NCBI RefSeq assembly: GCF_000341395.1
Contig: NC_020304.1
Location: 870,001 to 902,000 of the forward strand
Direction: 5' to 3'
Length of the DNA stretch: 32,000 nt
Source: Desulfocapsa sulfexigens DSM 10523
GTDB taxonomy: Bacteria; Desulfobacterota; Desulfobulbia; Desulfobulbales; Desulfocapsaceae
The position numbers were made by a program, and so were the translations under genes. Position 1 is the stretch's first letter; every line of letters begins with the position of its first letter. Of the stretch, positions 7,873-32,000 are shown in pieces. The notes below the pieces were generated by a model that had not been told where the DNA came from, ran no database searches, and saw only the letters and a list, made by a program, of their open reading frames with translations.

Positions 7873-7899
7873 CGACATATCCGGGGACCTCTTCCCAGC

Positions 7900-7928
7900 T
7901 TGACAGAGAGTCAAAATTCATTTACACT
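7900..7928 (+). promoter_or_regulatory. candidate sigma70 promoter for the riboswitch-btuB operon
   Basis: TTGACA (7900-7905), a 17-nt spacer, then TACACT (7923-7928). The promoter ends about 13 nt before riboswitch stem P1. Confidence 0.4.
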
Positions 7929-7940
7929 CCGGCCTAATTT

Positions 7941-8095: not shown

Positions 8096-8192
8096 AGACA
8101 ACGGTACAACCGGGTGCAATCCGGTTATGAGGTACTATGCTGAAATCTCCGTGGACAAGAGATTCCCAGCCATATCTGTGGAATTAAAGGGC

Positions 8193-8232
8193 ATCCCCGG
8201 ATCAATAGTCTATTGGTCCGGGGATTTTTTTT
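8193..8232 (+). terminator. intrinsic terminator (riboswitch expression platform)
   Basis: A 9-bp stem, ATCCCCGGA (8193-8201) with TCCGGGGAT (8217-8225), runs into a T8 tract ending at 8232. It lies between the aptamer and the btuB-like start. Confidence 0.75.
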
Positions 8233-8283
8233 GTCTTTTTGACAAACATCTCTTCGGGCATTTTATTCAAAAGAGGAAAGAAA

Positions 8284-10263: not shown

Positions 10264-10297
10264 GGCAGCGGGGAATGAAGCGAACATTTTGACTTGA

Positions 10298-10324
10298 AGC
10301 CCTGAAAAGAGTACATTCAGGGCT
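10298..10324 (+). terminator. 9-bp hairpin after the btuB-like gene (possible attenuator or weak terminator)
   Basis: AGCCCTGAA-aagagtaca-TTCAGGGCT. No clear T tract follows, so read-through into the CbiK-like gene is likely. Confidence 0.3.
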
Positions 10325-10392
10325 GCTGTCATTTACAATTTCACTCAATTTCCCAGCCTATAGATGGCGATGGATCAGCCAAAGGAATCAAT

Positions 10393-11250: not shown

Positions 11251-11255
11251 AGCAC

Positions 11256-12110
11256 ATGTACAGACAACTCTTTGTCTTTTTCTTTTTTGTCCTATGTCTC
11301 TTCGGATCTCCTGTACAGGGGGCCGATGTCACATATCCTCAGCGCATAGTCTCCCTGGGGCCAATCAATACCGAAAACGTCTTCCTTCTGGGGGCTGGTG
11401 ATCGCCTTGTCGCCAATACCAGCTACTGCGTCCGCCCAGAGGCCGCTAAAGCCAGAGAAAAGATAGGTTCTGTAATGCAGGTTTCCATTGAAAAGATTAT
11501 TGGGCTACAACCTGACCTGGTACTGGCAACCGGCCTAACCTCGATGCAGCAAATTAAGCAGCTGGAGTCCGTTGGCATTAACGTTGTTCAGTTCAAGCAG
11601 CCATCATCTTTAGCGGATATCTGTACCCAGTTCCTCCTCCTCGGCCAGCTCCTTGGCCTTGAAAACCGGGCAAAAGCGCTCATTTCTGAAACAAAGGAAA
11701 GACTGAATAATCTTGAGAAGAAAATTGCCGGGGCGCCACCGCAGAAGGTCTTTCTTCAGGTAGGTTCCCAGCCACTATTCTCCTCGGTACCAAGCTCCTT
11801 CACCAATGACTTTATTGTCCTTGCCGGCGGCAGTAACATCGCAGCAGATCAGCAAAAAGGTACCACAAATTATGAAAAAGTGATCGCTGCCAACCCCGAT
11901 GTGATTATCATAGCCATGATGGGATCCGAAAGTGGTATTGCCTCAAAAGAACGTGAGCGATGGATGGAGATGCCTGTCATCAGTGCAGTGCAAAACAATC
12001 GGGTACATGTGATCAATCCTGACATCGCCTGCAGTCCTTCACCCGCGACCTTTACCGACACTCTTGAGATCATGGCCCGTCTGATTCACCCTGAACTCTA
12101 CACCCCATAA
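11256..12110 (+). CDS. periplasmic substrate-binding protein, BtuF / Fe-siderophore (cluster A, PBP_2) family
   Basis: The signal peptide is MYRQLFVFFFFVLCLFGSPVQGA. QRIVSLGPINTENVFLLGAGDRLVANTSYC is the typical BtuF/FhuD-type N-terminal motif. PDVIIIAM and RVHVINPD match the C-lobe. Confidence 0.75.
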   Translation: MYRQLFVFFFFVLCLFGSPVQGADVTYPQRIVSLGPINTENVFLLGAGDRLVANTSYCVRPEAAKAREKIGSVMQVSIEKIIGLQPDLVLATGLTSMQQIKQLESVGINVVQFKQPSSLADICTQFLLLGQLLGLENRAKALISETKERLNNLEKKIAGAPPQKVFLQVGSQPLFSSVPSSFTNDFIVLAGGSNIAADQQKGTTNYEKVIAANPDVIIIAMMGSESGIASKERERWMEMPVISAVQNNRVHVINPDIACSPSPATFTDTLEIMARLIHPELYTP

Positions 12111-12114
12111 AACC

Positions 12115-12729
12115 ATGAGAATTTACGAAATCATCCAAAGCGGTGGCCCGGTGATGTGGCCACTGCTCCTCTGTTCCGTGACGGTATGCACCGTTGTTCT
12201 GGAACGCAGTTTCTTCTGGATTTCCATCCAGCGCAGACGTAACCGTAAGCTGACGGATGAAGTCCTGACTCTTGCAGAAAGTGCTGACTGGAAGCTAATC
12301 CGTGAAAAAGTAACCGGCTGTCAAGACCATATCATCCGACTGCTGGTGGTTGGTATTCTGCACAGAGATTATGATATGGGCCGGGCCATGGAAGCTGAGG
12401 CGAACTTGATGATTCAGCGAATGAACCGCTTTATGCCAGTACTGGATACCATGATCACGGTGGCACCTCTGCTTGGAATATTCGGAACGGTACTCGGAAT
12501 CATCGGATCCTTTAAGATCCTTGGCAACAGTGGCATTGCCGATCCGAAGCTGGTCACATCCGGCATCGCCCAGGCACTCATCACAACTGCGGCAGGACTT
12601 GGCATCTCTATCATCGCGGTGATCCCCTACAACTACTTCAATACCCGAATAAACCGAGCAGTTCATGTGATGGAAAAGTATGCAACCAACCTGGAAGTGG
12701 TTTATGAAAAGCTGGACACCCCATCATGA
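12115..12729 (+). CDS. exbB: MotA/TolQ/ExbB proton-channel protein
   Basis: Three TM helices. The conserved C-terminal half is LDTMITVAPLLGIFGTVLGII...IAQALITTAAGLGISIIAVIPYNYF. Confidence 0.85.
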   Translation: MRIYEIIQSGGPVMWPLLLCSVTVCTVVLERSFFWISIQRRRNRKLTDEVLTLAESADWKLIREKVTGCQDHIIRLLVVGILHRDYDMGRAMEAEANLMIQRMNRFMPVLDTMITVAPLLGIFGTVLGIIGSFKILGNSGIADPKLVTSGIAQALITTAAGLGISIIAVIPYNYFNTRINRAVHVMEKYATNLEVVYEKLDTPS

Positions 12730-13139
12730 AAATTAAAGCTCAAGCAATCAAGGCACCGCGTATCGAGATGCTGCCACTCATCGATGTTGTCTTTCTGCTA
12801 CTGGTTTTCTTTATTTACGCAATGCTTTCCATGGCAGTGCATCGGGGAATGCAGCTTGATCTTCCGGAATCAACAGAGGCAACTGACAGTCATGAAAGCC
12901 CGTTTTCATTAACCATTCGTAGTGATGATAAAGATATGACACTTTTTCTCAATGAAAAACCTCTCCTCCTTTCTCAACTGGCTCAACATTTTGACTCAGT
13001 GGATACCAGCAACGGAAAAAAACCTTCAGTTCTTATTTTTGCAGACGAAAACATCAGCTACCAACAACTGTATCAGGTTCTCGATGAACTCAAAAAATGC
13101 GGGGTTTCGGATATTTCACTGCAGGCAAATCCGAAATAA
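12726..13139 (+). CDS. exbD: ExbD/TolR biopolymer transport protein
   Basis: An ATGA overlap joins it to exbB. The N-terminal motif is EMLPLIDVVFLLLVFFI. The C-terminal periplasmic domain reads VLIFADENISYQQLYQVLDELKKCGV. Confidence 0.85.
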   Translation: MKIKAQAIKAPRIEMLPLIDVVFLLLVFFIYAMLSMAVHRGMQLDLPESTEATDSHESPFSLTIRSDDKDMTLFLNEKPLLLSQLAQHFDSVDTSNGKKPSVLIFADENISYQQLYQVLDELKKCGVSDISLQANPK

Positions 13140-13145
13140 GCTCCT

Positions 13146-13811
13146 GTGCGAAGATTTATCCCTGCCCTGATCCTTGCCCTTTGTCTCCACATCTTCTTAC
13201 TGATATCAAGGTTTCCACACCTTCCAACACTTCCGCCACGTTTAACCGGGCAAGAAAGTGTTACCATCAGCCTCAGTCCAGGCAGCAGTGTTGAAAAGCA
13301 AACAGAAACCGTAACAAAAGAAGAGCAGAGGAACACCATTGAAAAACCTGAGAAGGACGAGGCCGCAGTGGAAACGTCTGAGAAAATAAATACTCACGAC
13401 AAACAACCAGTCGTTTTAAAAAAAAAGGCTGTTCAGAAAATTGTCCACTCTCCCTCAGTCCCTGAACAGAAAAAGGCAGGGGTACAGAACAGTGCCAGAC
13501 CGAGAGAGGAGAGTGAACTACCTGCTGTTCCCATCCTCGTAAAGGCCTCACCGCACTATGCAAGCAATCCAAAGCCGGAATATCCCGCACTGGCCCGCCG
13601 TCGCAACCAGCAGGGAACTGTTATGGTATCTGTAACTGTTTCAGAAAAAGGAGTTCCAGACAGGGTCAGCCTCCACAAAAGCAGCGGTTATCCACTGCTG
13701 GACAAATCTGCTCTGAAGGCAGTCACCTTATGGCACTTTCTTCCAGGAACGACAGCTGGCCATCCCGTTGCCACGGAGGTACTGATCCCGGTACATTTCA
13801 AACTTCATTAG
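13146..13811 (+). CDS. tonB: TonB-family energy transducer
   Basis: GTG start and an N-terminal TM anchor, then a Glu/Lys/Pro-rich linker. The TonB_C domain is PEYPALARRRNQQGTVMVSVTVSEKGVPDRVSLHKSSGYPLLDKSALKAVTLWHFLPG. Confidence 0.85.
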   Translation: MRRFIPALILALCLHIFLLISRFPHLPTLPPRLTGQESVTISLSPGSSVEKQTETVTKEEQRNTIEKPEKDEAAVETSEKINTHDKQPVVLKKKAVQKIVHSPSVPEQKKAGVQNSARPREESELPAVPILVKASPHYASNPKPEYPALARRRNQQGTVMVSVTVSEKGVPDRVSLHKSSGYPLLDKSALKAVTLWHFLPGTTAGHPVATEVLIPVHFKLH

Positions 13812-14102
13812 CCCACATTTCTCATATGTCGTTAACCGGCAGTCCCGATAATTCTATAAACAAAGACTGTCAGGAAATGAATGGTGGAACCGTTCATCTA
13901 CGGAAAGACACCATATCACCTTGAGACTTTAATGATAAATTTCTTAATAATTTTCATAAAAGTCCTGTTATTGCGCAAGAAATAACGACCTGATTGAGGT
14001 TATAGTTGATGGAAACTCTACTCTATATTATTGTCGACAAGCTACAAAAAGAAAGGCACCTCACTTGCCAGCGTAACCATTTGATACAAAAAGGGAAAAA
14101 CT

Positions 14103-20928: not shown

Positions 20929-21515
20929 ATGCCCACTAAAGGTCAAGAGACTCGTAAACACATCCTGACAGAGAGCCGTAAGCTCTTTACTGTCCAGGGA
21001 TTTCAAAACACAAGCATCAGTGAAATAATTGCTGCGACAAGGGTAAAAAAGGAAATCTCTATTACTACTTTCCCAGCAAAGAGGAACTCGGCTTGGCCGT
21101 GCTGATTGATGCCAGGGATGAATTTTTCCATATTCTGGAAAACTCTCTGACCGGAGAAACCCCGATTCTCAGAATAATCAACTCCTGTAATTCAGTCATG
21201 GAACTCATGCAGCAAACAAACTTTGTCGGCGGTTGCCTGTTTGGTAATACGGCCCTGGAGATGACAGATTCCAACCCCAGATTCGGAGAAATTATACAGG
21301 AAATTTTCACCCACTGGACAACCAGGATAGAACAGCAGGTACTGCAGGCAACTGACACTGGAGAATTCAAAAGTGAAATACCATCCCATTCCCTGGCAAC
21401 TGCCATTGTTTCCATGCTGGAAGGAGGGATCATGTTTTCACGGGTCTATGGCAACAAAAAGGGACTCGAAGACTGTATCCTGGCCATCCGTTCCTTTCTG
21501 AAATGCCGAAGGTAG
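20929..21515 (+). pseudogene. TetR/AcrR-family regulator interrupted by a 1-nt frameshift in an A6 run
   Basis: Frame 1 gives MPTKGQETRKHILTESRKLFTVQGFQNTSISEIIAATRVKK. The TetR HTH then continues in another frame as (K)KGNLYYYFPSKEELGLAVLIDARDEFF...GCLFGNTALE...LEGGIMFSR to the stop at 21515. The switch falls in AAAAAA at 21045-21050; seven As would give one continuous ORF. Confidence 0.75.
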
Positions 21516-21533
21516 TTTTTTTGCACCAAAAAT

Positions 21534-21553
21534 TGTACCGTCTGGTCGGTACA
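21534..21553. promoter_or_regulatory. candidate TetR operator copy 2 (perfect inverted repeat)
   Basis: TGTACCG-tctggt-CGGTACA lies between the TetR stop and the DUF1566 lipoprotein start. No T tract follows, so an operator fits better than a terminator. Confidence 0.4.
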
Positions 21554-21584
21554 CATCAAACATTCGCCTTACAGGAGGTGTATC

Positions 21585-22112
21585 ATGGAAGACAGTAACA
21601 CTAAGAACCTGCAAAAAAAGTCAACACGCGCTTGGCCTCAAACAGGAGCGTCCAAAACCGTATTGCTCGCCTTTGTCATCCTGACGTTCTTTCTCACTAG
21701 CGGCTGCAGCAGCTTTTCCAAGCAGTCGGTGACAGACAGTCCCTCAGCCAGCTCCAGGCTAATTGCTGTAGACAATGATCTTTGCCAGGACACTAAAACT
21801 GGACAGATGTGGCAAGTAGAAAGAAGCAGGACTCTGAGATCACTCGCTGCTGCTCAAAACTACACCGAAACTTTACAAGCAGGCGGGTATCATGACTGGC
21901 GTCTGCCAACGGTCGCAGAACTCTATGAGCTCTATATTATTTTTGACCTCCACGAAAATGGAAACTGCACCCTGCAGGCAGAAGGAACCTACTGGTCGGA
22001 CGAAGAAGACCTTCAGGGGCGCGTTGGCAGTTGGGAACTCGATGCCAATTGTGACCCTGAACGGCAGTTTTTCCCCAAAAAAAAGGGATGGGTCCGCGCC
22101 ATTCGCCCTTAA
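21585..22112 (+). CDS. lipoprotein with DUF1566 (Lcl C-terminal-like) domain
   Basis: RBS AGGAGG. The lipobox is FFLTSGC. The DUF1566 hallmark is GYHDWRLPTVAELYELY. Confidence 0.7.
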   Translation: MEDSNTKNLQKKSTRAWPQTGASKTVLLAFVILTFFLTSGCSSFSKQSVTDSPSASSRLIAVDNDLCQDTKTGQMWQVERSRTLRSLAAAQNYTETLQAGGYHDWRLPTVAELYELYIIFDLHENGNCTLQAEGTYWSDEEDLQGRVGSWELDANCDPERQFFPKKKGWVRAIRP

Positions 22113-22638: not shown

Positions 22639-22676
22639 AAAAAAAAAGGCTGCTATCGAACAACAACAGCAGCCTT
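22639..22676 (-). terminator. intrinsic terminator of the octahaem cytochrome gene
   Basis: On the minus strand, AAGGCTGCT-13 nt-AGCAGCCTT runs into a T9 tract, 25 nt after the stop codon. Confidence 0.8.
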
Positions 22677-22700
22677 CCATCTCACATATCCTGTACGGTC

Positions 22701-23990
22701 TTATTTCTTATGCGTCGCCCTCATAGTGCGGGCAAGTTCTTTTATCTCACCAAGATCTTTGGTCATCTCGTTCCAGCCATACCAATAGGCATAGTCAGGA
22801 TTGACATGGAAGAAACCTTGATAGGCCCGCATCCGGTGTTTCATATACATCTGCACTAGAACCTGGTCGATGTAGGAGAGTTTATCCAGATCCTTATCCC
22901 AACGTTCACCATTGGTATGCATGAAAGTCAGGAGGAACGGATAGTTTGCCGGATAGTTTGCCGGTTTTTCTATGATGCCCTCTTCATAAAGAGCCGCAAC
23001 CGTGGTAATAGCCTCAGCCATTAACCGATCGGCTTTCATCATAATAGAGTCGCCCATGTCAAGCTGTTCCTTGGCATAGCTTGCAGAATGACACTGCTGG
23101 CAGGTTTTCAGCATCTTGTCACGTTCCTTCTGCCACGACTCCTGGTCAAGCTTGGCCATACGTACGGCTTTAACTGCATCCAGGATCGGTGTGGGGGCTC
23201 CGGTCTTGGGATCAAGCACGCCAAGAGCCTTCAAAATAGTGACACGATCATCTGCAGCCTGTTTGTCATCGGGCAAAGGCAGGCGGACACCGAGGAACCC
23301 CCAGGCGGTTTCATTGTGGTGGGTGCCTTCCGGTAAATGACAGGTCTGACAGGTGGGAGCGGCAGCGTCGGCGGGCAGATCACCGTTCTGCTTGGCGAAC
23401 CAGCGCATTCCGTGTTTGGAGCTTGACCACATCTCCCACTGGGGATGATCGTAGCCCATATGACACTGCTGGCAGGCCCTCGGATTCTGAGCCTCTTTTT
23501 TGGAGAAGGAATGCCTGGTATGGCATTCATCGCATGAATTATTCTGGTAACGGTAGCCTTTGGCTACCTGTTCCTTTTTCTGCTCCTCAGTTTTTATTCC
23601 CATATTGTGACAACCACCACAGCCGCGCCCACCCTCGATCAGCTCATCAGGGGCGGCATGGGTGGCTGGAATAGCATTCAGCGATGTCCAGCCAAAATTA
23701 TGCTTGCCGCTTGCGAACTCGTTGAACTGCTCCTCATGACACTCGGCACAGACATGCTCATCCGGTAGCTTTGCATTTTTGTAATCCTCTGCGGTCTTAT
23801 GCTCCTCGCCATGGCAGGTGGAACAGGTCACTTCTCCGCTTTCGGCATGTTTACTTGATTGATAATCCTTGACCATAGCTGGTGACACTTTGGTATGGCA
23901 GTCGATGCAGGCATCACCGGCTGTGGCAAAGTTTACCGACAGCAGTAAACCTACTGTAGCGGCTATTGCCACAAAGTTTTTTTTTCTCAT
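22701..23990 (-). CDS. periplasmic octahaem cytochrome c of the hydroxylamine oxidoreductase (HAO) family
   Basis: Has a Sec signal peptide. Eight CXXCH motifs: CIDCH, CSTCH, CAECH, CGGCH, CDECH, CQQCH, CQTCH, CQQCH. The HAO-family block is CQQCHMGYDHPQWEMWSSSKHG. RBS AAAGGGAGGA. Confidence 0.9.
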   Translation of the reverse strand: MRKKNFVAIAATVGLLLSVNFATAGDACIDCHTKVSPAMVKDYQSSKHAESGEVTCSTCHGEEHKTAEDYKNAKLPDEHVCAECHEEQFNEFASGKHNFGWTSLNAIPATHAAPDELIEGGRGCGGCHNMGIKTEEQKKEQVAKGYRYQNNSCDECHTRHSFSKKEAQNPRACQQCHMGYDHPQWEMWSSSKHGMRWFAKQNGDLPADAAAPTCQTCHLPEGTHHNETAWGFLGVRLPLPDDKQAADDRVTILKALGVLDPKTGAPTPILDAVKAVRMAKLDQESWQKERDKMLKTCQQCHSASYAKEQLDMGDSIMMKADRLMAEAITTVAALYEEGIIEKPANYPANYPFLLTFMHTNGERWDKDLDKLSYIDQVLVQMYMKHRMRAYQGFFHVNPDYAYWYGWNEMTKDLGEIKELARTMRATHKK

Positions 23991-24068
23991 TTGTTACGTT
24001 CCTCCCTTTTAGGTATGAAATATGTGAGACAAAATATAAAAAAATAACTGAACACACTGGGAATTCCC

Positions 24069-24082
24069 TTGAGTTACATCAA
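24069..24082. promoter_or_regulatory. FNR/CRP-family type box upstream of the HAO-like gene
   Basis: TTGAG-ttac-ATCAA matches TTGAT-N4-ATCAA at 9 of 10 positions and is centred about 85 nt upstream of the ATG. On the coding strand a TATTTT hexamer starts 22 nt after the box, which is class II geometry. Confidence 0.4.
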
Positions 24083-24105
24083 AATATCAAAGTCTCTCCC
24101 TGTGG

Positions 24106-24417
24106 TTAATAATTCCGCGTGACGAAATCGACATACTCTCTCCATAATCTTGGTGGATCCAGAATTTGAAAATCGATCTCCCTTCCTTGATTATCTGATA
24201 GCGTGATTATGTTACAGACCCTGACAGAAATGGATATTGTCTGGTTGCTGGTAAGTATCAGTTTTATGGGGGCACGTGTCTTCTCATCAAACTGATCTGG
24301 AAGACCACTTGCCCTGAAGCTTGAACACGTAATGTTGCCTATGGTGCACTTATAATAAAATCTGCTGTCGGAAATCCTTATGGACAATTTTTTTGTGCTC
24401 ACCGCCAGTTCCTTCAA
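24106..24417 (-). CDS. hypothetical protein (possibly a degenerate PilZ-like beta-barrel)
   Basis: 103 codons with only a TTG start, which overlaps the stop of the HPP-like remnant (TTGA). There is a weak PilZ-like pattern (RISDSR ... GNITCSSF ... IKLILT ... ISVRV ... IDFQIL) but the canonical RxxxR and DxSxxG motifs are not intact. Confidence 0.35.
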   Translation of the reverse strand: MKELAVSTKKLSIRISDSRFYYKCTIGNITCSSFRASGLPDQFDEKTRAPIKLILTSNQTISISVRVCNIITLSDNQGREIDFQILDPPRLWREYVDFVTRNY

Positions 24418-24638
24418 TACCAGAATTCCGGGTATTGCCTTCTGGCGGACAAGTTATTGACCAGCAAGCCGATAACCAGCATGATTAATGTCCCCAGTCC
24501 CCCAGAAATGAAGGCATACAGATATCCAATATCATGAGTCTTATTGCTGTCGATGATCATAACCATGCCACCTTGGAACAGCCACGCAGCCTCTTCCCTG
24601 AAAAATTCATCTCTGGTAAGATGTCGATAGCACCAGCA
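24414..24638 (-). pseudogene. C-terminal remnant of an HPP-family membrane protein gene
   Basis: This open frame is too short for the ORF track. It ends ...HDIGYLYAFISGGLGTLIMLVIGLLVNNLSARRQYPEFWY*. That matches the last TM helix and the NNL...RR.YP..W tail that I recall for HPP-family proteins. No HPP motif or earlier helices are present. An internal ATG at 24566 would give only 50 aa. Confidence 0.4.
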
Positions 24639-24667
24639 TCACCTTTTGGTGTTTGTATTTCACCAGC

Positions 24668-25627
24668 TTACCAGTCCAGCAGCCGTTTGTTTCCTTCGAT
24701 TTTCTGAATCGCCCCGATGGCCTGGGTAACCTCCAGGACACCCATATAGACACCGTCATCATCGTAAACGGGGAAGTAGCGGATCAGGATCTTATCCTCC
24801 TTGAAATCGATCCAGAACTCAGCCTTGTCACGAGTTTTATCTTTAAAGCTCTGGACGATTTTGCGGACAGTGTCGACGGAATGGGCTGGGTGACATTTTT
24901 CCACCTTGCGGCCAATGACTGATCGGGTGCGCGGAAAGAGCTTTTCCTTGTCCAGTCGGTTGAAGTAGGCAACACTGTTCTCAGCATCAACAAAGGTCAC
25001 CTCAAAGGGCATGGCCTCCATGATGGCGTCAAGCTGTTTGTAGCTCAGACCTTCGATCAGCTTTTTACGCCGTTCATCTGTTTTTTCTACCTCCAGAACC
25101 ATCTGCTGGAATTTTTGCCAGGCATCTGGGCCGTAGGTCTCGGAATTAATAGATGCAAAAGAGTTGATGAGGTATTCGTTGTCGCCCTCCTGCATGAGTT
25201 TGCGACCCATGGGGTAAAGCACATCATTTTCTTTCCAAATATGGTCGGCTCGGATACGCAGGTAATCCTCCGCCTCCTGACAGAAGCTATTCTGCTCGGT
25301 GGTGGATATGGTATTAAGGGTACCAAGCTTCATGAGCATAGAGGAGAGCAAGTTGCGCTCGGCATCATGTTCCATGAGCATTACCGCCAGAGGCCCGCCA
25401 TTTCTGGGCACTCCACGCTCTTCCATCAAAGGGAAAAGATTTTCCTCCTCTTTCTTGTTGTGGATCTTATCGCCGAACTCCAAGAGAAAATCAACGGCCC
25501 GCCGCAGTTGCACCAAATCACACCGCCCCTCACGCAGTTTTGCCAGTTGTTCTTTGAGGACCGCCATGGCCCGTTCGATCATTTCATGTTCGGCGATTAA
25601 GTACTCATCCCATTCTGTAATATTCAT
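24668..25627 (-). CDS. hemerythrin-like / DUF438 / PAS-domain protein (typical hcp neighbour)
   Basis: I trimmed the start to ATG 25627 (MNITEWDEY...), 6 nt after GAGG. The hemerythrin-type motifs are EHEMIERAM, HNKKEEENLFP and MLMEHDAE. The C-terminal DUF438/PAS block is MPFEVTFVDAENSVAYFN...FPRTRSVIGRKVEKCHP...FWIDF...LIRYFPVYDDDGVYMGVLEVTQ. Confidence 0.85.
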   Translation of the reverse strand: MNITEWDEYLIAEHEMIERAMAVLKEQLAKLREGRCDLVQLRRAVDFLLEFGDKIHNKKEEENLFPLMEERGVPRNGGPLAVMLMEHDAERNLLSSMLMKLGTLNTISTTEQNSFCQEAEDYLRIRADHIWKENDVLYPMGRKLMQEGDNEYLINSFASINSETYGPDAWQKFQQMVLEVEKTDERRKKLIEGLSYKQLDAIMEAMPFEVTFVDAENSVAYFNRLDKEKLFPRTRSVIGRKVEKCHPAHSVDTVRKIVQSFKDKTRDKAEFWIDFKEDKILIRYFPVYDDDGVYMGVLEVTQAIGAIQKIEGNKRLLDW

Positions 25628-25667
25628 AGTGTGCCTCATAAAAGAAAAAGTTCGTATAGCAATACTA

Positions 25668-25685
25668 TGTGAAAACCCGTTCACA
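25668..25685. promoter_or_regulatory. perfect TGTGAA-N6-TTCACA palindrome upstream of the DUF438 gene
   Basis: TGTGAAaacccgTTCACA is centred about 50 nt upstream of the ATG at 25627. Confidence 0.5.
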
Positions 25686-25855
25686 TGGAAGAAAAAAAAT
25701 AACCTCTATTCCTAACCCGGATTTCACACAAGTCGGGATGACCATAGATGCGAGGAACGAGCATCGAACATTCGGCTAGTAACCTGGAGAAGTCGCCAAA
25801 CCCCCTGACATTATGGCTGTCATACCGGGCATAGTCGCTTTTCCAGGCCACGCCC

Positions 25856-27490
25856 TTATCCTAAAATGGCCTTCAGGTCTTCATCTGGGGTGGAGATGGG
25901 CATGATATTGAAGTTCTCCACAAGGACATTTAGGACATTCGGGGTAATGAATGCCGGTAGACTGGGTCCGAGGCGGATATCCTTGATGCCCAGAGAGAAG
26001 AGGGACAGCAGGATGACCACAGCCTTTTGCTCGTACCAGGAAAGAACCAGTGACAGGGGCAGATCGTTAACCTCGCAGTCAAAGGCACCAGCCAGGGCTA
26101 CGGCAATCTGGACTGCAGAATAGGCGTCATTGCACTGTCCCACGTCAAGAAGACGGGGAATACCGCCGATATCGCCGAGCTTCTTGTCAAAGAAGCGGAA
26201 TTTTCCGCAAGCCAGCGTCAAAACCATGCAATCCTCCGGCACTTTCTCCACCAGTTCGGTGTAGTAATTGCGACCCGGCTTGGCACCGTCACAGCCGCCC
26301 ACCAGGAAGAAATGGCGGATGGCCTTGGCCTTCACCGCACCGATGACTTTGTCAGCTACACCTAACACGGCGTTGCGGGCAAAACCGACCATGACAGAAC
26401 CATTGTCAACCTTATCGGTAAAGCCATCCAGGGCCAGGGCACGATCGATAACAGCGCTGAAATCCTTTTCCCCGCTGCCTTCAACATGGGCCACGTCAGG
26501 CCAGCCTACCAGGCCGGTGGTAAAGACGTTGTCCTTATAGGAATCCGCCGGCTTCTGGATGCAGTTGGTGGTAAACAGAATGGCTCCCGGGAATTCGGGC
26601 ATCTCCTTCTGCTGGTTCTGCCAGGCAGTACCATAATGACCGTAAAAGTGCGGATATTTCTTTAGCTCCGGATAGCCGTGGCAGGGCAGCATTTCGCCGT
26701 GGGTGTAGATGGTAATCCCCTTGCCCTCGGTCTGTTTGAGCAGCATATCCAGATCTTTCAGGTCATGGCCGGTTACCAGAATACACTTGCCGGGAATATG
26801 GCCCAGGGGTACCTCAGTGGGTACCGGATGGCCATAGGTGCCGGTGTTACCCGCATCAAGAAGCTCCATGGCCTTAACATTCACCTCACCGGTCTTAAGT
26901 GCCATGGCCACCAGGTCATTTAGCTCCATCTTGCTGGTAATGGCAGCCATGGCCTCATGGATGAAGGCATAGACCGCATCGTCTTCTTTACCAAGGATGG
27001 CAGCATGGTCTGTGTAAGCGGCCAAGCCGCGAAGTCCATACATAATAATCTGCTTCAGGGAACGCAGGTCTTCATTGGCATCAAGGCCGGGGATGAAGTC
27101 CAGCGCCTTGCCCTGATCTTCAAGACCGGCAAGGCTGTCAGCGGGAGAGAAAGACAGGGCGGCAGCCGAGCTGGTCACCGTACCGCCAGCCGCTTCGACC
27201 TTAGCTCTCAGCTCGTCACGCAGGGTAATGGCCTCTCTGATCAGGGTCTCGAATCTGGCTGGATCGAAGTCAACGTTGGTGAGACAAGAAAAGATCGCTT
27301 CACAGGTGAAACGATCAACCCTGTTATCAACTACACCCACCTGACGTCCGGCATGGGCAACAAGAGAAAGTCCCTGTACCGCGTGGGTCAACAAATCCTC
27401 AAGGCCGGCGACCTCATCATTTTTTCCGCACACTCCTATCTTGGTGCAGGCAATACCCTTTACTGTCTGTTCACACTGGTTACAAAACAT
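25856..27490 (-). CDS. hcp: hybrid cluster protein (hydroxylamine reductase / NO reductase) Hcp
   Basis: The N-terminal Cys cluster is MFCNQCEQTVKGIACTKIGVCGK. The length (544 aa) and conserved blocks fit Hcp: ILVTGHDLKDL, YTHGEMLPCHGYP, YGTAWQNQ, LFTTNCIQ, FLVGGCDG, LTLACGKFRF and DVGQCNDAYSA. RBS AGAGGAG. Confidence 0.95.
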   Translation of the reverse strand: MFCNQCEQTVKGIACTKIGVCGKNDEVAGLEDLLTHAVQGLSLVAHAGRQVGVVDNRVDRFTCEAIFSCLTNVDFDPARFETLIREAITLRDELRAKVEAAGGTVTSSAAALSFSPADSLAGLEDQGKALDFIPGLDANEDLRSLKQIIMYGLRGLAAYTDHAAILGKEDDAVYAFIHEAMAAITSKMELNDLVAMALKTGEVNVKAMELLDAGNTGTYGHPVPTEVPLGHIPGKCILVTGHDLKDLDMLLKQTEGKGITIYTHGEMLPCHGYPELKKYPHFYGHYGTAWQNQQKEMPEFPGAILFTTNCIQKPADSYKDNVFTTGLVGWPDVAHVEGSGEKDFSAVIDRALALDGFTDKVDNGSVMVGFARNAVLGVADKVIGAVKAKAIRHFFLVGGCDGAKPGRNYYTELVEKVPEDCMVLTLACGKFRFFDKKLGDIGGIPRLLDVGQCNDAYSAVQIAVALAGAFDCEVNDLPLSLVLSWYEQKAVVILLSLFSLGIKDIRLGPSLPAFITPNVLNVLVENFNIMPISTPDEDLKAILG

Positions 27491-27575
27491 GCTAAATCTC
27501 CTCTATAAAATGGGGACATAAATAAATATGGTACAGTGACGGTCACGTCATCCTTCATTTATTTTCCTGATTACC

Positions 27576-27613
27576 ACTCCTCCTCAGCCTACCCGGCTGA
27601 GGAGGAGTTTTTT
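27576..27613 (+). terminator. strong hairpin plus T6, canonical only on the + strand (orphan terminator)
   Basis: A 14-bp stem, ACTCCTCCTCAGCC-taccc-GGCTGAGGAGGAGT, runs into a T6 tract. It lies in the 311-bp spacer between the cupin stop and the hcp start, and no + strand gene precedes it. Confidence 0.5.
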
Positions 27614-27801
27614 CGTGTTGATGATATGGGCATCTGCGGCCTGGACGGCCGCAGCAGAGCCCCCAGGGATGGGTTTATGGCGTCCCATATAATCGACACG
27701 GAACAACTCCGGGTTGCTAAGCTGAGTTTCGATGGTAATCAAGTTTATTTTTATTCTTCAAAACTTCATTGACTTGAATCAATACTTTTCTTTTTCTTAA
27801 T

Positions 27802-28122
27802 TTAAATCGGAGGGGTGATGGTGACCACGATACGCATATCGCTTTCCGCTTTAACCCCATGCGGCTCCCTTATTTCAGAAATAAGAATATCACCTGTTTT
27901 GGCAGGTATCTCAGCTTCATCCTTTCCCAGAAAATACCCACTCCCCTCGATGACATGGATGGAAAGCTGACCATCCAAATCATGGGAGTGGACCGGAAAG
28001 GTATGACCAGCAGAAAGATTGAAGTTGATTATTTTAAAATTGGGCGAATCCTGGACAAGGAAGAACCGTTTCATTCCGCCTTCCGTAAACTCTCTGGTCT
28101 CATCAAGACTTATCTTTTTCAT
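27802..28122 (-). CDS. small cupin-domain protein
   Basis: I trimmed the start to ATG 28122 (MKKISLDET...), 4 nt after GAGGAGGAG. The cupin motifs are GHTFPVHSHDLDGQLSIHVIEGSG and GDILISEIREPHGV. Confidence 0.8.
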   Translation of the reverse strand: MKKISLDETREFTEGGMKRFFLVQDSPNFKIINFNLSAGHTFPVHSHDLDGQLSIHVIEGSGYFLGKDEAEIPAKTGDILISEIREPHGVKAESDMRIVVTITPPI

Positions 28123-28209
28123 GGAACTCCTCCTCACATAAGGAAAGGATCCGAAGTAAAAACCACCTCGGACGACCTCTTTTGTTGTATCCGTATGTCC
28201 TGAACAGGA

Positions 28210-28398
28210 CTACTCATCTTCAAGTTCGATAGCACCGACCGGGCACGATTCCACCGCCTCCTCGCAGTTACAGGTGGAACACTTGTCAGATCCGATGACC
28301 CAGGATTTCTCGTCTCGGATTTCGAAAACTTCGGGACAGAGCTCGGCACATATTTCACAGCCAATACACAATTCATGATCAACGATAGGCTTTGCCAT
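28210..28398 (-). CDS. small single-cluster ferredoxin
   Basis: I trimmed the start to ATG 28398 (MAKPIVDHE...) after AAGGAGGA. It is 62 aa with CIGCEICAELCP and a distal C..C....SCP. It ends 87 nt upstream of the cupin start, so the two are probably co-transcribed. Confidence 0.85.
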   Translation of the reverse strand: MAKPIVDHELCIGCEICAELCPEVFEIRDEKSWVIGSDKCSTCNCEEAVESCPVGAIELEDE

Positions 28399-28410
28399 AA
28401 CATCCTCCTT

Positions 28411-28428
28411 TGTGAAATCATTTTCACA
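28411..28428. promoter_or_regulatory. perfect TGTGAA-N6-TTCACA palindrome abutting the ferredoxin RBS
   Basis: TGTGAAatcattTTCACA. On the coding strand it reads TATTATGTGAAAATGATTTCACAAAGGAGG, so a -10-like TATTAT overlaps the left arm and the RBS follows the right arm. Confidence 0.55.
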
Positions 28429-28501
28429 TAATAGGCAAAAAAATATTATCCCTGAAAGCCAAGCAAAAAAGTGCACAGCCCCAGGTTGTTTCTACTTGTC
28501 G

Positions 28502-29119
28502 TCATCCGGAACCCCGCTCGTTTTTTCCGGTCAGCAGCAGTCGAAAAAGTGGCCATGCTGCGCTGAAATGCCCCTCAACATCAAACTGTCCTTCACTCAT
28601 GTGCCAGAGCAGGGCCGCTGGCTGGACAATACCAAAAAACATCCTGGCTACGGCTCCAGGTTCCAGGCTACTCCGAATCTCTCCCTTAGCCTGTCCTTCA
28701 CGAATGATCTCTTCCAGTTCTGCGAGATAACTGCTGACGATAAAGAACATCTGTTGACGCCTGATCCGTTTCTGCCCCCACAACTCGTCGGAAAAGACGA
28801 TGCGCGGGATACCCTGGTTCTGGATGATCAGCCTGCTATGACGGACAAGCAATTCATGGAGGCGATCGACGGCGTTTTCTCTTATCTGCCGAACATTCAC
28901 TATATTTCTATAGAGTTTACCCCGTATATGTTCCAGGATTGCGCTTAAGATTGCATCCCTGTTTTTGAAGTGACGGTAGAGTGCCGAAGGGGCCAAACCC
29001 AGATGGGCGGCAATCTCAGTGACCTTCAGCTTTTTCACCTCGTTATCACTAAGGATGTGCAAGGCAGCTTCGACGATCTGTTCCTTCCGTATGCCCGAGG
29101 AAAGTTTTTCCGTAGTCAT
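28502..29119 (-). CDS. TetR/AcrR-family transcriptional regulator
   Basis: The N-terminal HTH is RKEQIVEAALHILSDNEVKKLKVTEIAAHLGLAPSALYRHFKNRDAIL. The C-terminal helical domain is TetR-like. RBS AAGGAG. Confidence 0.9.
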   Translation of the reverse strand: MTTEKLSSGIRKEQIVEAALHILSDNEVKKLKVTEIAAHLGLAPSALYRHFKNRDAILSAILEHIRGKLYRNIVNVRQIRENAVDRLHELLVRHSRLIIQNQGIPRIVFSDELWGQKRIRRQQMFFIVSSYLAELEEIIREGQAKGEIRSSLEPGAVARMFFGIVQPAALLWHMSEGQFDVEGHFSAAWPLFRLLLTGKNERGSG

Positions 29120-29134
29120 ATTATTTGCTCCTTA

Positions 29135-29178
29135 AGTGAACTTAAATTCACATTAGGCAGTCCCTGTTGTGTTGTCAA
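29135..29178 (-). promoter_or_regulatory. candidate sigma70 promoter of the TetR gene with overlapping TGTGAA-N6-TTCACT operator
   Basis: The minus strand reads TTGACA (29178-29173), a 17-nt spacer, then TAATGT (29155-29150). The -10 overlaps the palindrome TGTGAAtttaagTTCACT (29152-29135), which has 11 of 12 arm positions. The RBS AAGGAG follows immediately. Confidence 0.5.
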
Positions 29179-29216
29179 TCCCGAAAAAGACAAAATCAAG
29201 TTCCTATCACTATCGA

Positions 29217-29666
29217 CTACAAGTTGTTCAGCAAATCCAGTTGTTGGCGATCAAGTATGTTACTGGTATTGTAAACACAGCGAAGATGAACCATGCTTGC
29301 CTCAGCCTTCAACCCGGCAATGGCTTGAACGAGTGATTGTAGCTCATCGGGAGTCTTTCCCGATAAAATCCCCTCTGCAACCTGTTTCTCCAGCGGTGCA
29401 ATTTCCTGACCCAGTTTTCGAACATCTTCAATAGTTTCCTTCCTCACTACAAGCAGTTTGCCCTTCTGTTCTTCTGAAAGACGTAATTCCGGATTATCCC
29501 ACTGTTGCATCAGCAGCTGGGTAAGGTGAGGAATTTTACCTGTTATTAGAAAAGGAGGACTGTTTCCCTGTTTTCCATTCACCCTTCCCTGGGCCATAAG
29601 ATTAGCGGCTGACAGGGAGAGTATCATCATTAAAACAGCGACCAAGGCAATACGAGTTTTTGTCAT
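29217..29666 (-). CDS. periplasmic Spy/CpxP/ZraP-family-like protein
   Basis: Has a signal peptide (AANLMA-QG). The mature part is all-helical, with repeats of the LTxxQ type (LSEEQKGKL, LDRQQLDLL) typical of the CpxP superfamily. Confidence 0.6.
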   Translation of the reverse strand: MTKTRIALVAVLMMILSLSAANLMAQGRVNGKQGNSPPFLITGKIPHLTQLLMQQWDNPELRLSEEQKGKLLVVRKETIEDVRKLGQEIAPLEKQVAEGILSGKTPDELQSLVQAIAGLKAEASMVHLRCVYNTSNILDRQQLDLLNNL

Positions 29667-29740
29667 TTTTATTTATCCTTATTTTGTGCTCAGGGTGCCA
29701 AAACTAACAACCTGCTAATCGAACTGAAAGGAGTAACAAA

Positions 29741-29777
29741 TAAAGAGCACTGAAGAAAAGCTTTCAAGTGCTCTTTA
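29741..29777 (-). terminator. terminator hairpin after the OM beta-barrel gene
   Basis: On the minus strand, an 11-bp stem (TAAAGAGCACT with AGTGCTCTTTA) is followed by TTTGTT. Confidence 0.55.
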
Positions 29778-29822
29778 GTGTTCTTCTATAATGTCACGCT
29801 GAATACAGCTACGTTACAGTTC

Positions 29823-30440
29823 CTAAAAGCTGTAACGTAGTCCAAGCATCAGGTCATTGCTGTTAACATTGAAATCAGCACCATCAATGCTAGCCTCACT
29901 GGTACCAATAAACCTGTACTGAGCATCAACAGACCACTGGTCGTTGAAAGCATAGGCTACACCCCCAATGAACTGGTATGTGAATACATCGTCACTGTCG
30001 GAATCATTAAAGCCAGCGTCGTTGATGTCAAGTTTAGACCAGCCTATTCCGCCACCGACAAATGGTGTCCAGGCAGAGCCGGTATCAACATCGTAAAAAC
30101 CATTGACCATAAAGGAAAGAGTTTTCAGGTCGCCCTCGTTAAAGCTACCGTAATAGTTGTTGTAGTACGTTATATCAAGGTCATTCTTTTGTTTGATAAT
30201 CTCTAGTTCCATACGCATCGGGCTCACAAAATCATACCCTGCAGCAAGAGAACCTACAAAGCCGCTGTCATATGTCATTTTGGCTGTCCCGCCTCCATTT
30301 GGCATGTTGTCTATATCAGCATCCATACCCATACCTATGCCTATATTCCCCTTAATGTAAAAGGAATCTTTGGCGGCCATTGAACTCACAGGAGCAACGA
30401 GTACAGTCAGCGTTGCTACAGTTAATAAGGTTTTTTTCAT
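29823..30440 (-). CDS. small outer-membrane beta-barrel protein (OmpA-N / OmpW-like porin family)
   Basis: The signal peptide ends SSMAA. The sequence shows alternating amphipathic strands with aromatic girdles. The C-terminal signature is LMLGLRYSF, with a terminal Phe. Confidence 0.8.
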   Translation of the reverse strand: MKKTLLTVATLTVLVAPVSSMAAKDSFYIKGNIGIGMGMDADIDNMPNGGGTAKMTYDSGFVGSLAAGYDFVSPMRMELEIIKQKNDLDITYYNNYYGSFNEGDLKTLSFMVNGFYDVDTGSAWTPFVGGGIGWSKLDINDAGFNDSDSDDVFTYQFIGGVAYAFNDQWSVDAQYRFIGTSEASIDGADFNVNSNDLMLGLRYSF

Positions 30441-30517
30441 TTTATATTCCTCTTTTGAAAATTTAATAAAGATAAATATTTTCTTATATAATTTCTACAT
30501 CGACACAGATATAAGCT

Positions 30518-30826
30518 TTAGCGTTTCCGGCCACCTCCCCCACCACTCCCACGCCTTTGCTGAGTACTACTATCATCTCTTTTTGCATTGGCTGGTTGTC
30601 CAGTGTATTGCTGCCGTTCCTCTGGCGTCATATTCTGCATGCGCTCCTGCCATTCAGAACGAAAAGCATTACGCTCTTCCTCGCTTGCCTCCTGCAGAGT
30701 TCCCCGCGAGTTACTGAGTTCTTCATTACTCATGCTGGAATAATCGTTTACTGCCCATACCGGTGTTGCTGCTGTCATGAACGTCATGGTCAACATAATT
30801 GCTGTTTTTTGAATCTTGCATGTCAT
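30518..30826 (-). CDS. small secreted acidic protein with Gly/Arg-rich tail
   Basis: RBS GGAGGA lies 5 nt upstream. The signal peptide is MLTMTFMTAATPVWA. Repeated EE(E)R motifs occur (EEERNAFRSEW, TPEERQQY). The tail is RRGSGGGGGRKR. Confidence 0.6.
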   Translation of the reverse strand: MTCKIQKTAIMLTMTFMTAATPVWAVNDYSSMSNEELSNSRGTLQEASEEERNAFRSEWQERMQNMTPEERQQYTGQPANAKRDDSSTQQRRGSGGGGGRKR

Positions 30827-30895
30827 GATTTTTCCTCCATATTTTTTTGGGAATCATAATTCACAGGCCGTCTTAAGTTCCTCACCTGCTCCATC

Positions 30896-31714
30896 TCATT
30901 TGTTTTGGCTCTTGTTTCCAAGCAATTGTATGCCATTTCTTCCTACACCCTCACGATCCTTGAGGGTCGCATTCTTAGCCAGGTATACTTTTGCCCATAT
31001 TTCAATCGGTTCATGGCTGCCACCGCCCTGTGCACCTCCTTTTCCTCCCATTTTTTTGCCACCTCCTCCACCACCCCTTCCGCCTCGACCACCACCGGAA
31101 GATACTTTGCCGGATGGTTTTTCTGGTTTACCGGTCTCAAGCCCGACACCGATAGTGTTGTTTTTTTTTGAGTAAGTTAGTGGAACTTTCAGTTCATAAA
31201 CCAGATACCCTTGCTGCATTCCGAGTCGGACATATATCCCCATTTCTTCAGCTTTGTTCGTCGGTAATGTTTGACGGGTCTCTTCCACCCCACTGAGTAT
31301 GGCCAGGCTGTACTGTGTATCTTCCAGCATTTCCTCCATACCATTTCTTGTTTTATGGTCTGACATGCGTCCCGGGATCAGATTTTGTCTGGCAAGTGGG
31401 AACTGTAGGCCGAATGTTTTTCTGTTCTCTCCTGTGTCATCAAGCCATACGGTGAAACCGGTTCGCAAAAGCATCATATTGGTAACCTGGTTTCTACTTA
31501 ACAAGCGGATATAGAGACTATCCTCATCGTTCATCATAGACACTCGCACCCTGGAATTTTCATCAAAATACTGTGGATTTTCCGGCCAGGCAGCATCTCT
31601 ACCGTTTAAAGAAATCGGTTCAGTCCACTGGCTTTGCAGTTCCACTTCGTTACATCCAACCAGAGAGATGGTTACCAGAGGAATTAAGAGGGTAAGGAGC
31701 TTAGTTGGTTTCAT
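30896..31714 (-). CDS. lipoprotein of unknown function with internal Gly/Arg/Lys-rich segment
   Basis: The lipobox is ISLVGC. A beta-rich N-terminal domain follows (DEDSLYIRLL, GFTVWLD). The low-complexity segment is SSGGGRGGRGGGGGGKKMGGKGGAQGGGS. Confidence 0.65.
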   Translation of the reverse strand: MKPTKLLTLLIPLVTISLVGCNEVELQSQWTEPISLNGRDAAWPENPQYFDENSRVRVSMMNDEDSLYIRLLSRNQVTNMMLLRTGFTVWLDDTGENRKTFGLQFPLARQNLIPGRMSDHKTRNGMEEMLEDTQYSLAILSGVEETRQTLPTNKAEEMGIYVRLGMQQGYLVYELKVPLTYSKKNNTIGVGLETGKPEKPSGKVSSGGGRGGRGGGGGGKKMGGKGGAQGGGSHEPIEIWAKVYLAKNATLKDREGVGRNGIQLLGNKSQNK

Positions 31715-31841
31715 AATGTTCTCTCTTTTGTTTTTTGTTAAACCTCTTGACTTGAATCGATAATGATTTGTCGATTAGCCTTGGATTTTTCTAAAGTACA
31801 GCACTCTCTGACTGATTGCTGTTAAGCTCCGGTCAAGTTGT

Positions 31842-31856
31842 GTAAAGTTGTGTAAA
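31842..31856 (+). promoter_or_regulatory. CpxR-type box GTAAA-N5-GTAAA
   Basis: GTAAAgttgtGTAAA lies inside a perfect 10-bp tandem repeat, GTTGTGTAAA x2 (31837-31856). It sits 66 nt upstream of the response-regulator ATG, in the divergent intergenic region. Confidence 0.5.
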
Positions 31857-31921
31857 GCTATTACACTGATTAGAAATAGTGCAGTAGTATCCGAGAGAGA
31901 ATGATCTTCGGAGGAGACGAT

Positions 31922-32000
31922 ATGAAAACAATTTTAGTCATTGATGATGACAAAGAACTGTGCGAGTTGCTGGTTGAATTTTTACAGCCAGAAGGATTTA
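31922..32000 (+). CDS. OmpR/CpxR-like response regulator, first 26 codons (continues right of the window)
   Basis: RBS GGAGGAG. The translation MKTILVIDDDKELCELLVEFLQPEGF closely parallels the CpxR N-terminus as I remember it (MNKILLVDDDRELTSLLKELLEMEGF). Confidence 0.75.
   Translation, partial: MKTILVIDDDKELCELLVEFLQPEGF

Follow-up and report, generated by a model that had tools for sequence, protein, structure and literature searches.

A proposed composite nitrosative-stress locus with a predicted TetR operator beside an HAO-family octahaem cytochrome gene in Desulfocapsa sulfexigens

Gene content of the locus

The 32-kb stretch of Desulfocapsa sulfexigens DSM 10523 DNA analysed here (positions 870,001 to 902,000 of NC_020304.1, hereafter the window) carries seven co-oriented genes between its positions 22701 and 29119, all on the minus strand: the gene of an HAO-family octahaem cytochrome (hao), an HPP-family relic, a gene for a di-iron protein (Hr-PAS), hcp, a cupin gene, a small ferredoxin gene (fdx) and the gene of a TetR-family repressor (Table 1). 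A first reading made from the letters alone (hereafter the original prediction) had already placed seven genes there on a single strand, and the search with Pfam and NCBIfam profiles confirmed the position of each. The same gene order is found in L081 and L082, two independent assemblies with an identical cytochrome (related loci are designated by L numbers). Two points are worth pursuing at this locus: a predicted TetR regulon with a sharply defined operator, and the orphan, tyrosine-bearing HAO clade to which the cytochrome belongs.

Table 1 Features of the locus (positions within the window)
Feature	Position	Strand	Description
Terminator-like hairpin	22644-22678	-	strong intrinsic-terminator-like hairpin and T-run; directly after hao
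hao	22701-23990	-	HAO-like cytochrome, 429 aa; eight CxxCH; PF13447 4.5e-29; periplasmic, Sec signal peptide; Tyr402 and Tyr404
Indel block	23991-29822		orf149 to HPP relic; absent between omp and hao in L001 (blastn collinearity)
HPP relic	24414-24566	-	50 aa; PF04982 profile positions 113-157 of 157 only
Hr-PAS	24668-25627	-	hemerythrin and PAS_10 di-iron protein, 319 aa; real start MNITEW; also called with 319 aa in L081 and L082
Predicted operator O3	25668-25685		perfect palindrome; 40 bp upstream of the Hr-PAS gene
hcp	25856-27490	-	NF003658 819 bits (cut-off 367); TIGR01703 739 bits; PF03063
Hairpin	27576-27608		perfect 14-bp stem (ACTCCTCCTCAGCC/GGCTGAGGAGGAGT); in the 312-bp cupin-hcp spacer
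Candidate HcpR-type (FNR-like) site	27769-27782		TTGATTCAAGTCAA; one mismatch; cupin-hcp spacer, 280 bp upstream of hcp
Cupin gene	27802-28122	-	106 aa; PF07883
fdx	28210-28398	-	small ferredoxin (Fdx), 62 aa; Fer4_13/Fer4_15
Predicted operator O2	28411-28428		perfect palindrome; upstream of fdx
tetR	28502-29119	-	TetR-family repressor, 205 aa; PF00440 and PF08359
Predicted operator O1	29135-29152		TGTGAATTTAAGTTCACT; one mismatch; 16 bp upstream of the tetR start
orf149	29217-29666	-	secreted protein, 149 aa; directly upstream of tetR; no Pfam or NCBIfam match; within the block missing from L001

The Hcp translation matches its family over the full length and above the curated cut-off. Its N-terminal cysteines, read from the window translation, are spaced C3-x2-C6-x8-C15-x5-C21, a pattern (C-x2-C-x8-C-x5-C) that we take to be that of class I. 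The HPP gene, called a remnant in the original prediction, is a true relic that keeps only the last 45 profile positions; in an intact HPP protein of 178 aa it would span residues 128-178, the C-terminal 50 aa, and the complete transmembrane domain is lacking. On the other hand, the label "DUF438-hemerythrin" has to be dropped for the Hr-PAS protein: neither DUF438 (PF04282) nor DUF1858 was found in it at E ≤0.01, the level at which its domains were judged, and only Hemerythrin and PAS_10 were recovered. Its homologue in L085 has the full four-domain form DUF1858-DUF438-Hr-PAS_10 (COG2461 type). The match of its di-iron domain to the RIC/YtfE type is weak (25 bits, versus RIC equivalog cut-offs of 204-254). 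An open reading frame at 24106-24417 has no Pfam or NCBIfam match.

A predicted palindromic operator common to three transcription units

The palindrome TGTGAA-N6-TTCACA occurs three times in the intergenic regions of the island, twice as a perfect copy and once with one mismatch, and ~0.002 perfect copies would be expected by chance in 32 kb. O1 sits just downstream of a promoter-like site (TTGACA-17-TAATGT). Judged by its domains and by the operator at its own promoter, the TetR protein would be an autoregulated repressor, whose binding to these sites is predicted. That the genes of the island are related, as the original prediction held, is borne out in so far as this shared predicted operator ties together three transcription units.

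A metagenome scan centred on TetR yielded 80 loci (597 kb) with a protein 39-90% identical to the window TetR. The palindrome is present in 75 of them, in 74 at 10-16 bp ahead of the tetR start; 92 perfect copies were counted in the 597 kb versus 0.04 expected. In these contigs, which are unrelated and total hundreds of kilobases, the palindrome goes closely with this TetR subfamily. A site equivalent to O2 lies between tetR and fdx in L084 and in L087-L100. We also examined 80 species-level loci centred on hao. There, palindromes with at most one mismatch occur almost only where a TetR orthologue is present. In L084 they stand before tetR and before fdx, and in L086 before tetR. The Desulfuromonadales loci L033 (Malonomonas rubra), L038, L039 and L051 have one palindrome at tetR and another between tetR and hao. 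L054 has a perfect copy 155 bp upstream of hao, and at least five Desulfuromonadales loci have the palindrome immediately in front of hao. In L033 (1585-7235) and L038 (2403-8101), it also precedes an HlyD membrane-fusion gene and a gene for a 1,488-aa AcrB-OEP fusion, that is, an RND pump with a fused outer-membrane factor; HlyD and pump genes lie there between hcp and tetR-hao.

Among the TetR-centred loci, genes near the TetR orthologue encode Fdx (17 loci), Hr-PAS (13) and cupin (7), as well as Hcp, CBS-HPP, qNorB and HAO-family cytochromes. Downstream of close orthologues, Fdx is the commonest gene, then come DUF6448 and CBS-HPP; other orthologues are followed by Hr-PAS, cupin, Fdx, GltD-like oxidoreductase, hcp, qNorB and 10-haem HAO-like genes. 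The DUF6448 protein (PF20046; secreted, 209 aa; L097 1888-2517, also L093, L096, L098 and L101) is absent from the window. Its gene comes after TetR-Fdx, with CBS-HPP or the end of the contig next; in L101, where it follows tetR, an Fdx gene was not detected in between.

In two loci (L133 506-1693 and L147 116-1303), a single open reading frame of 395 aa fuses TetR_N and TetR_C to a hemerythrin domain. Both fusions are followed by Hr-PAS and cupin genes, and in L147 by Fdx too, the L133 contig ending after the cupin gene. Such fusions in relatives suggest that a di-iron domain may be the sensor of this TetR subfamily. A literature search for a TetR regulator of hcp, or for a regulator of this kind, found nothing relevant, and neither did one for locus tags of D. 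sulfexigens. Hence, the TetR subfamily and its palindromic operator apparently define an undescribed regulon, which would be the new result of this analysis.

hcp and hao upstream regions

The candidate HcpR-type site in the cupin-hcp spacer is the only match to TTGAC-N4-GTCAA with at most one mismatch in the window, where 1.2 such matches would be expected, and ~0.01 in the spacer. The HcpR consensus in Deltaproteobacteria is wyTTGACnnnnGTCAArw (PMC1274295). In L086, L038 and L092, hcp likewise has a comparable site upstream. From these sites, hcp looks to be controlled separately from the genes with a TetR operator. The perfect hairpin in the same spacer has a T-run on the plus strand only, and both of its arms carry Shine-Dalgarno and anti-Shine-Dalgarno-like sequence. 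No RNA family of Rfam matched the hcp leader; the sole match in the window was a cobalamin riboswitch elsewhere.

No terminator-like site was found between Hr-PAS and hao, so hao may be read through from Hr-PAS. A conserved hao promoter was not found either: the upstream regions of relatives do not align, except for ~50 bp common to the window and L086. Inspection by eye upstream of hao showed no convincing sigma-54 promoter.

The octahaem cytochrome and its cross-link tyrosine

The haem motifs of the cytochrome (C28, C56, C81, C124, C153, C173, C214 and C297) are invariant in 32 homologues. Its best solved-structure matches by phmmer are Nitrosomonas HAO (5e-24), Kuenenia and Brocadia HAO-like proteins, HDH and an Ignicoccus octahaem protein. 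HAO-family chains score 1e-15 to 5e-24, versus 0.003 or weaker for octahaem nitrite reductases. Foldseek against the PDB returned eight HAO-family chains as the only significant matches (TM ~0.5, from a low-confidence AF2 monomer model with pLDDT 62). The distal Asp-His pair of Nitrosomonas HAO (NeHAO D267-H268, GVDHNNWE) aligns with D181-H182 of the window protein (GYDHPQWE) and is invariant in the clade. Its motifs, its likeness to solved HAO, HOX and HDH more than to ONR, OTR or NrfA, and its Asp-His pair make the cytochrome a genuine octahaem member of the HAO family.

It has many relatives: 7,065 database proteins at E ≤1e-5, the top 120 of which are 74-100% identical and ~428 aa long. 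Relatives are encoded at no fewer than 591 species-level genome loci, with 70-88% identity across orders. The hosts of the clade are mostly Desulfobulbales and Desulfuromonadales, with some Zixibacteria, Krumholzibacteriota and Acidobacteriota.

The original prediction proposed to look for the cross-linking tyrosine of HAOs, and a tyrosine is present at the aligned position. Tyr467 of NeHAO (WTYTEGW) aligns with Tyr402 (YAYWYGW), and phmmer aligns the cross-link tyrosine of KsHOX (QTYGNG) with Tyr404. Tyr402 is kept in 80 of 84 clade members and Tyr404 in 81 of 84 (each at least 95%). The reductive Kustc0458 has Trp at both aligned positions. HAO paralogues adjacent to NrfH (L086, L038, L039, L069 and L128) read PDYA[W/H/Q]WHG, with W, H or Q at 402 and His at 404. 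Under either alignment, a tyrosine is thus placed at the cross-link position of the window protein, unlike in the quinol-linked paralogues. This difference matches the independent His-to-Tyr transition reported in 2025 within Desulfobacterota HAOs (PMC12758564). According to the family rule, Tyr means oxidative and its absence reductive (PMC8042395). For the window HAO, oxidation is therefore the prediction, and not the reduction of nitrite or hydroxylamine that had been proposed for it. The AF2 monomer model, which contains no haems, was rejected for placing the tyrosine owing to its low pLDDT.

Electron partners

No other open reading frame with more than one CxxCH motif, and no NapC/NrfH/CycB-type tetrahaem quinol dehydrogenase, was found across the window. 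The original prediction was right to call this HAO partner-less, but what it took for an anomaly is the norm of the clade: another open reading frame with at least two haem motifs occurs within 6 kb of hao in 11 of the 80 hao loci, and in none of the other 69. De novo clustering of the neighbours of these loci was tried for a conserved partner cytochrome, and none emerged.

The commonest neighbours of hao are a sigma-54 response regulator and a PilS-like kinase, in Desulfocapsa-like genomes. These are probably an unrelated PilSR pair. The pair (6TM_PilS kinase) is seen at L020 11784-14883 and in ~15 other Desulfocapsa-like loci, mostly directly downstream of hao, and upstream of it in L044 and L045. 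A conserved pentahaem cytochrome of ~446 aa adjoins hao in three loci, 63 bp downstream in L073 (11334-12674) and L078 (6157-7497) and 161 bp upstream in L056 (3266-4603); its best solved match is 5ze8, "cytochrome c552" (2e-10). The MccSep polysulfide reductase (PMC13510729) was considered as a relative and rejected as a pentahaem, non-HAO protein.

Gene order in relatives

The original prediction had staked its proposal of a unit on synteny in relatives, and this is where it fails: of the 80 hao loci, only 3 have hcp at a distance of up to 10 kb from hao, and 1 has an Hr-PAS gene nearby. In L001, whose hao is 86% identical, hao matches hao and positions 29823-32000 of the window match 6110-8965 with 77-78% nucleotide identity. 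Between the outer-membrane-protein gene (omp) and hao, L001 has 1,035 non-coding bp, versus 5.8 kb in the window. This 5.8-kb block holds orf149, TetR, Fdx, cupin, Hcp, Hr-PAS and the HPP relic. L001 has the same flanks without the block, and the juxtaposition of hao and hcp is therefore an indel polymorphism. As far as gene order tells, hao beside hcp is a lineage-specific accident, with hao pre-existing.

The other relatives are mosaics. The order in L084 (hao 76% identical) is TetR, Fdx, CBS, HPP, orf126, cupin, hao and a 10-haem HAO-like gene. In L085 (88%), the Fdx, DUF1858-DUF438-Hr-PAS and cupin genes run divergently from NorR, and hao comes after NorR. In L086 (88%), qNorB, NorR, HPP, CBS, GATase, Hcp and a second HAO-like gene with NrfH precede TetR and hao. 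The sigma-54 activators of L085 and L086 pass the NorR equivalog cut-off with 660 and 682 bits, versus 476. L027 has hao followed by CBS-HPP, so that intact CBS-HPP pairs adjoin hao in L027, L084 and L086. Each window gene has a counterpart 70-79% identical in one of the mosaics L084-L086: Fdx is 79% identical to that of L084, the cupin 76% to that of L085, a member of a NorR-adjacent operon, and TetR 70% to that of L084 (and 59% to that of L086), both upstream of hao. Relics of orf126, cupin or CBS were sought between the HPP relic and hao of the window, and none was found. Other hao loci at 85-88% identity have no N-oxide genes nearby. The N-oxide theme of the original prediction thus recurs around the hao of L084-L086, with NorR, qNorB, Hcp and CBS-HPP, neighbours that speak for a nitrogen-oxide role, but does not extend to most hao loci, which are without such genes. 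In L086, genes for an IS21-family transposase and IstB (11872-14080) come right after hao, as would fit a region that is mobile or has been rearranged.

The remaining genes of the window are functionally unrelated, namely a hybrid kinase, ABC exporters and a cobalamin-riboswitch TonB/CbiK cluster. The riboswitch (RF00174, 120 bits) is at 7926-8109 on the plus strand, upstream of the cluster at 8239-13811, which comprises a TonB-dependent receptor, a CbiK-type chelatase, a periplasmic binding protein and ExbB/TonB. At 20929-22112 (plus strand), a second TetR-family gene (TetR_C_13 type) and a gene for an Lcl_C-domain lipoprotein converge on hao; both are kept in L081-L083 and have no evident tie to the island.

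Interpretation of the locus

Overall, we read the island as a composite, mosaic nitrosative-stress locus with two regulatory inputs, and not as a dedicated pathway unit, with a probability of about 0.5. Its genes probably belong to the defence against nitric oxide (NO), nitrite and hydroxylamine. TetR would repress tetR, fdx-cupin and Hr-PAS until a signal derived from nitrogen oxides relieves repression, and the hemerythrin di-iron domain may help to sense that signal. An HcpR-type activator would turn on hcp, while hao may be transcribed by read-through from Hr-PAS. The ferredoxin would feed class-I Hcp, which would reduce NO (or hydroxylamine) in the cytoplasm. The Hr-PAS protein would act in a YtfE/RIC-like manner. 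This cytoplasmic chemistry, from ferredoxin to class-I Hcp and with a YtfE-like di-iron protein, is deduced from what is known of the families. Among Desulfobacterota that metabolise sulfate or sulfur, it is common for soluble enzymes of the periplasm to use its cytochrome c3 pool. The exported HAO would likewise exchange electrons with a soluble periplasmic cytochrome pool, and not with a dedicated NrfH/NapC partner. Because a tyrosine occupies the cross-link position, it would be more likely to oxidise hydroxylamine (to NO or nitrite) than to reduce nitrite; its substrate is most likely hydroxylamine or NO.

Several observations weigh against this reading. About 85% of hao loci show no nitrogen-oxide genes nearby. 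In the window, L084, L085 and L086 alike, the 450 bp ahead of hao contain no TetR operator (≤3 mismatches), so that TetR control of the window hao depends on the putative read-through over a 677-bp spacer. The HcpR-type site has one mismatch and is 280 bp away from the hcp start. The tyrosine cross-link is read from the alignment only, with an ambiguity of one residue, and the AF2 model has a pLDDT of only 62. The nitrogen-oxide signal of TetR is a putative one. Finally, many TetR orthologues at 40-48% identity adjoin HlyD/ABC or RND efflux pumps that they would control, a pattern that agrees with a generic toxic-compound response no less than with a nitrogen-oxide one.

The main rival explanation is that the neighbours are coincidental: HAO would serve sulfur or general periplasmic electron transfer, for instance the reduction or oxidation of sulfite, thiosulfate or polysulfide in a sulfur disproportionator, and an unrelated hcp stress cassette would have landed beside it. 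The rarity of hcp near hao, the lack of nitrogen genes at most hao loci, the flanks of L001 without the block and the missing operator upstream of hao in the window all fit this explanation, as does the pentahaem cytochrome that adjoins hao in L056, L073 and L078. The hao clade is concentrated in the sulfur-cycling Desulfobulbales and Desulfuromonadales, sulfur substrates have been proposed for Desulfobacterota HAO-family proteins (PMC9213671), and D. sulfexigens lives by sulfur disproportionation (PMC3739170). We nevertheless hold it to be rather unlikely. At least five Desulfuromonadales loci carry the predicted operator just ahead of hao, and three more arrangements (window, L084 and L086) have a TetR orthologue upstream of it. 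In addition, NorR adjoins hao in L085, CBS-HPP does so in L027, L084 and L086, and the HAO-type distal Asp-His pair is conserved.

The two-compartment route of the original prediction, in which HAO reduces nitrite to hydroxylamine or ammonium and ferredoxin-fed Hcp finishes, for detoxification or respiration, is improbable. The HPP family, which that prediction linked to nitrite transport, is present only as a truncated relic. The route gains from the co-oriented array of an HAO-family enzyme, Hcp and a small Fe-S protein, from a precedent in Nautilia (PMC3701875) and from the nitrite reduction in vitro by Tyr-bearing HAOs (PMC8042395). It had been presented as undescribed; its concept, a periplasmic Hao, a cytoplasmic Hcp and a 4Fe-4S donor, has been published as reverse-HURM (PMC2628731, PMC3701875). 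The fit is poor, since reverse-HURM calls for a Hao without this Tyr and for a NapC/NrfH-type CycB, whereas the window has the Tyr and no such cytochrome; the NrfH-linked paralogues that would fit (L086, L038, L039 and L069) form a different, His-bearing group, and synteny is not conserved. There is also little to recommend a general oxidative, iron or xenobiotic stress regulon, in which TetR senses O2, iron or a toxic organic compound and hemerythrin, cupin, ferredoxin, Hcp and pumps serve that response: hemerythrin domains commonly sense O2 or iron and most distant TetR orthologues stand beside HlyD-ABC or RND pumps, but the regulon turns up together with NorR, qNorB, HcpR-type sites, CBS-HPP and HAO-family cytochromes, and NO reduction is the best established activity of Hcp (PMC11633192).

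Returning to the composite nitrosative-stress locus, a bolder extension can be formulated, which taken as a whole we consider unlikely. TetR, with the operator aTGTGAAt-N4-aTTCACAt and possibly a hemerythrin di-iron sensor, would be a fifth type of N-oxide-responsive regulator in anaerobes beside NsrR, NorR, HcpR and DNR/NnrR, coordinating cytoplasmic enzymes for NO and hydroxylamine (Fdx, cupin and Hr-PAS, sometimes with Hcp and qNor), CBS-HPP transporters, efflux pumps and HAO-family cytochromes; its periplasmic target in the window would be a Tyr-cross-linked, P460-type, hydroxylamine-oxidising HAO of strict anaerobes that do not belong to the nitrifiers or the anammox bacteria.

As a unit, the island is lineage-specific, made of parts of known kinds, and an ordinary type of stress locus. 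Since it is not a new pathway unit, the adjacency of hao and hcp should not be read as a conserved module. Its value is that it opens to testing a very widespread and highly conserved clade of the HAO family with an uncharacterised role, which carries the "oxidative" tyrosine outside nitrifiers and anammox bacteria. Cultured hosts exist (D. sulfexigens DSM 10523 and Malonomonas rubra) and offer a direct experimental route, and the predicted regulator with its operator could reveal the inducing signal. If TetR does respond to nitrogen oxides, a regulator class would be added to the nitrosative-stress network of sulfur-cycling anaerobes.

Comparison with known systems

The locus resembles reverse-HURM as known from Nautilia profundicola and Campylobacter (HaoA with CycB, Hcp with NAMH_1302) in combining a periplasmic HAO-type protein, a cytoplasmic Hcp and a small Fe-S donor. 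It differs in that Nautilia HaoA lacks the critical Tyr and uses the NapC/NrfH-type CycB (PMC3701875), whereas the window protein has the Tyr and no partner nearby. In addition, the Nautilia genes are dispersed over the genome, while those of the window are adjacent, an adjacency not kept in relatives.

With the oxidative HAOs (Nitrosomonas HAO, 1fgj/4n4n; Kuenenia HOX, 4n4j; HDH, 6hif), the window protein shares eight CxxCH motifs, the distal Asp-His pair and the aligned Tyr, and they are its best sequence and fold matches. Unlike them, it is ~100 aa shorter, with ~20% identity, a different spacing of haem motifs 4-5 and a cross-link that is predicted only. The setting differs too, the host being a strict anaerobe without ammonia oxidation and hao having no c554/cM552-type neighbours.

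The hcp region recalls the HcpR-controlled hcp-frdX operons of Deltaproteobacteria (Rodionov et al. 2005, PMC1274295), with a class-I hcp, a ferredoxin-like gene nearby and a candidate FNR-like TTGAC-N4-GTCAA-type site upstream; hemerythrin- and cytochrome-c-like genes were reported as further members of the HcpR regulon (PMC1274295). In contrast to these operons, fdx, cupin and Hr-PAS lie under a different, TetR-associated operator, and the window has no hcpR. The pairing of Hcp with a di-iron hemerythrin-like protein, beside it or co-regulated with it, is known from enterobacterial YtfE/RIC and Hcp, for the management of NO and nitrite (PMC9052748). Unlike YtfE/RIC, the window protein combines hemerythrin with PAS_10, has no ScdA_N/DUF1858 domain and scores far below the RIC equivalog cut-offs.

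Finally, TetR compares with the TetR/AcrR-type efflux repressors. E. coli CecR/YbiH-ybhGFSR is an arrangement of this kind, with an autoregulated repressor of an efflux pump. The window TetR has the same TetR_N helix-turn-helix domain and a predicted palindromic operator over its own promoter, and its distant orthologues precede HlyD-ABC or RND pumps. Unlike the efflux repressors, its close orthologues precede Fdx, DUF6448, CBS-HPP, cupin, Hr-PAS and HAO-family genes, and some are fused to hemerythrin.

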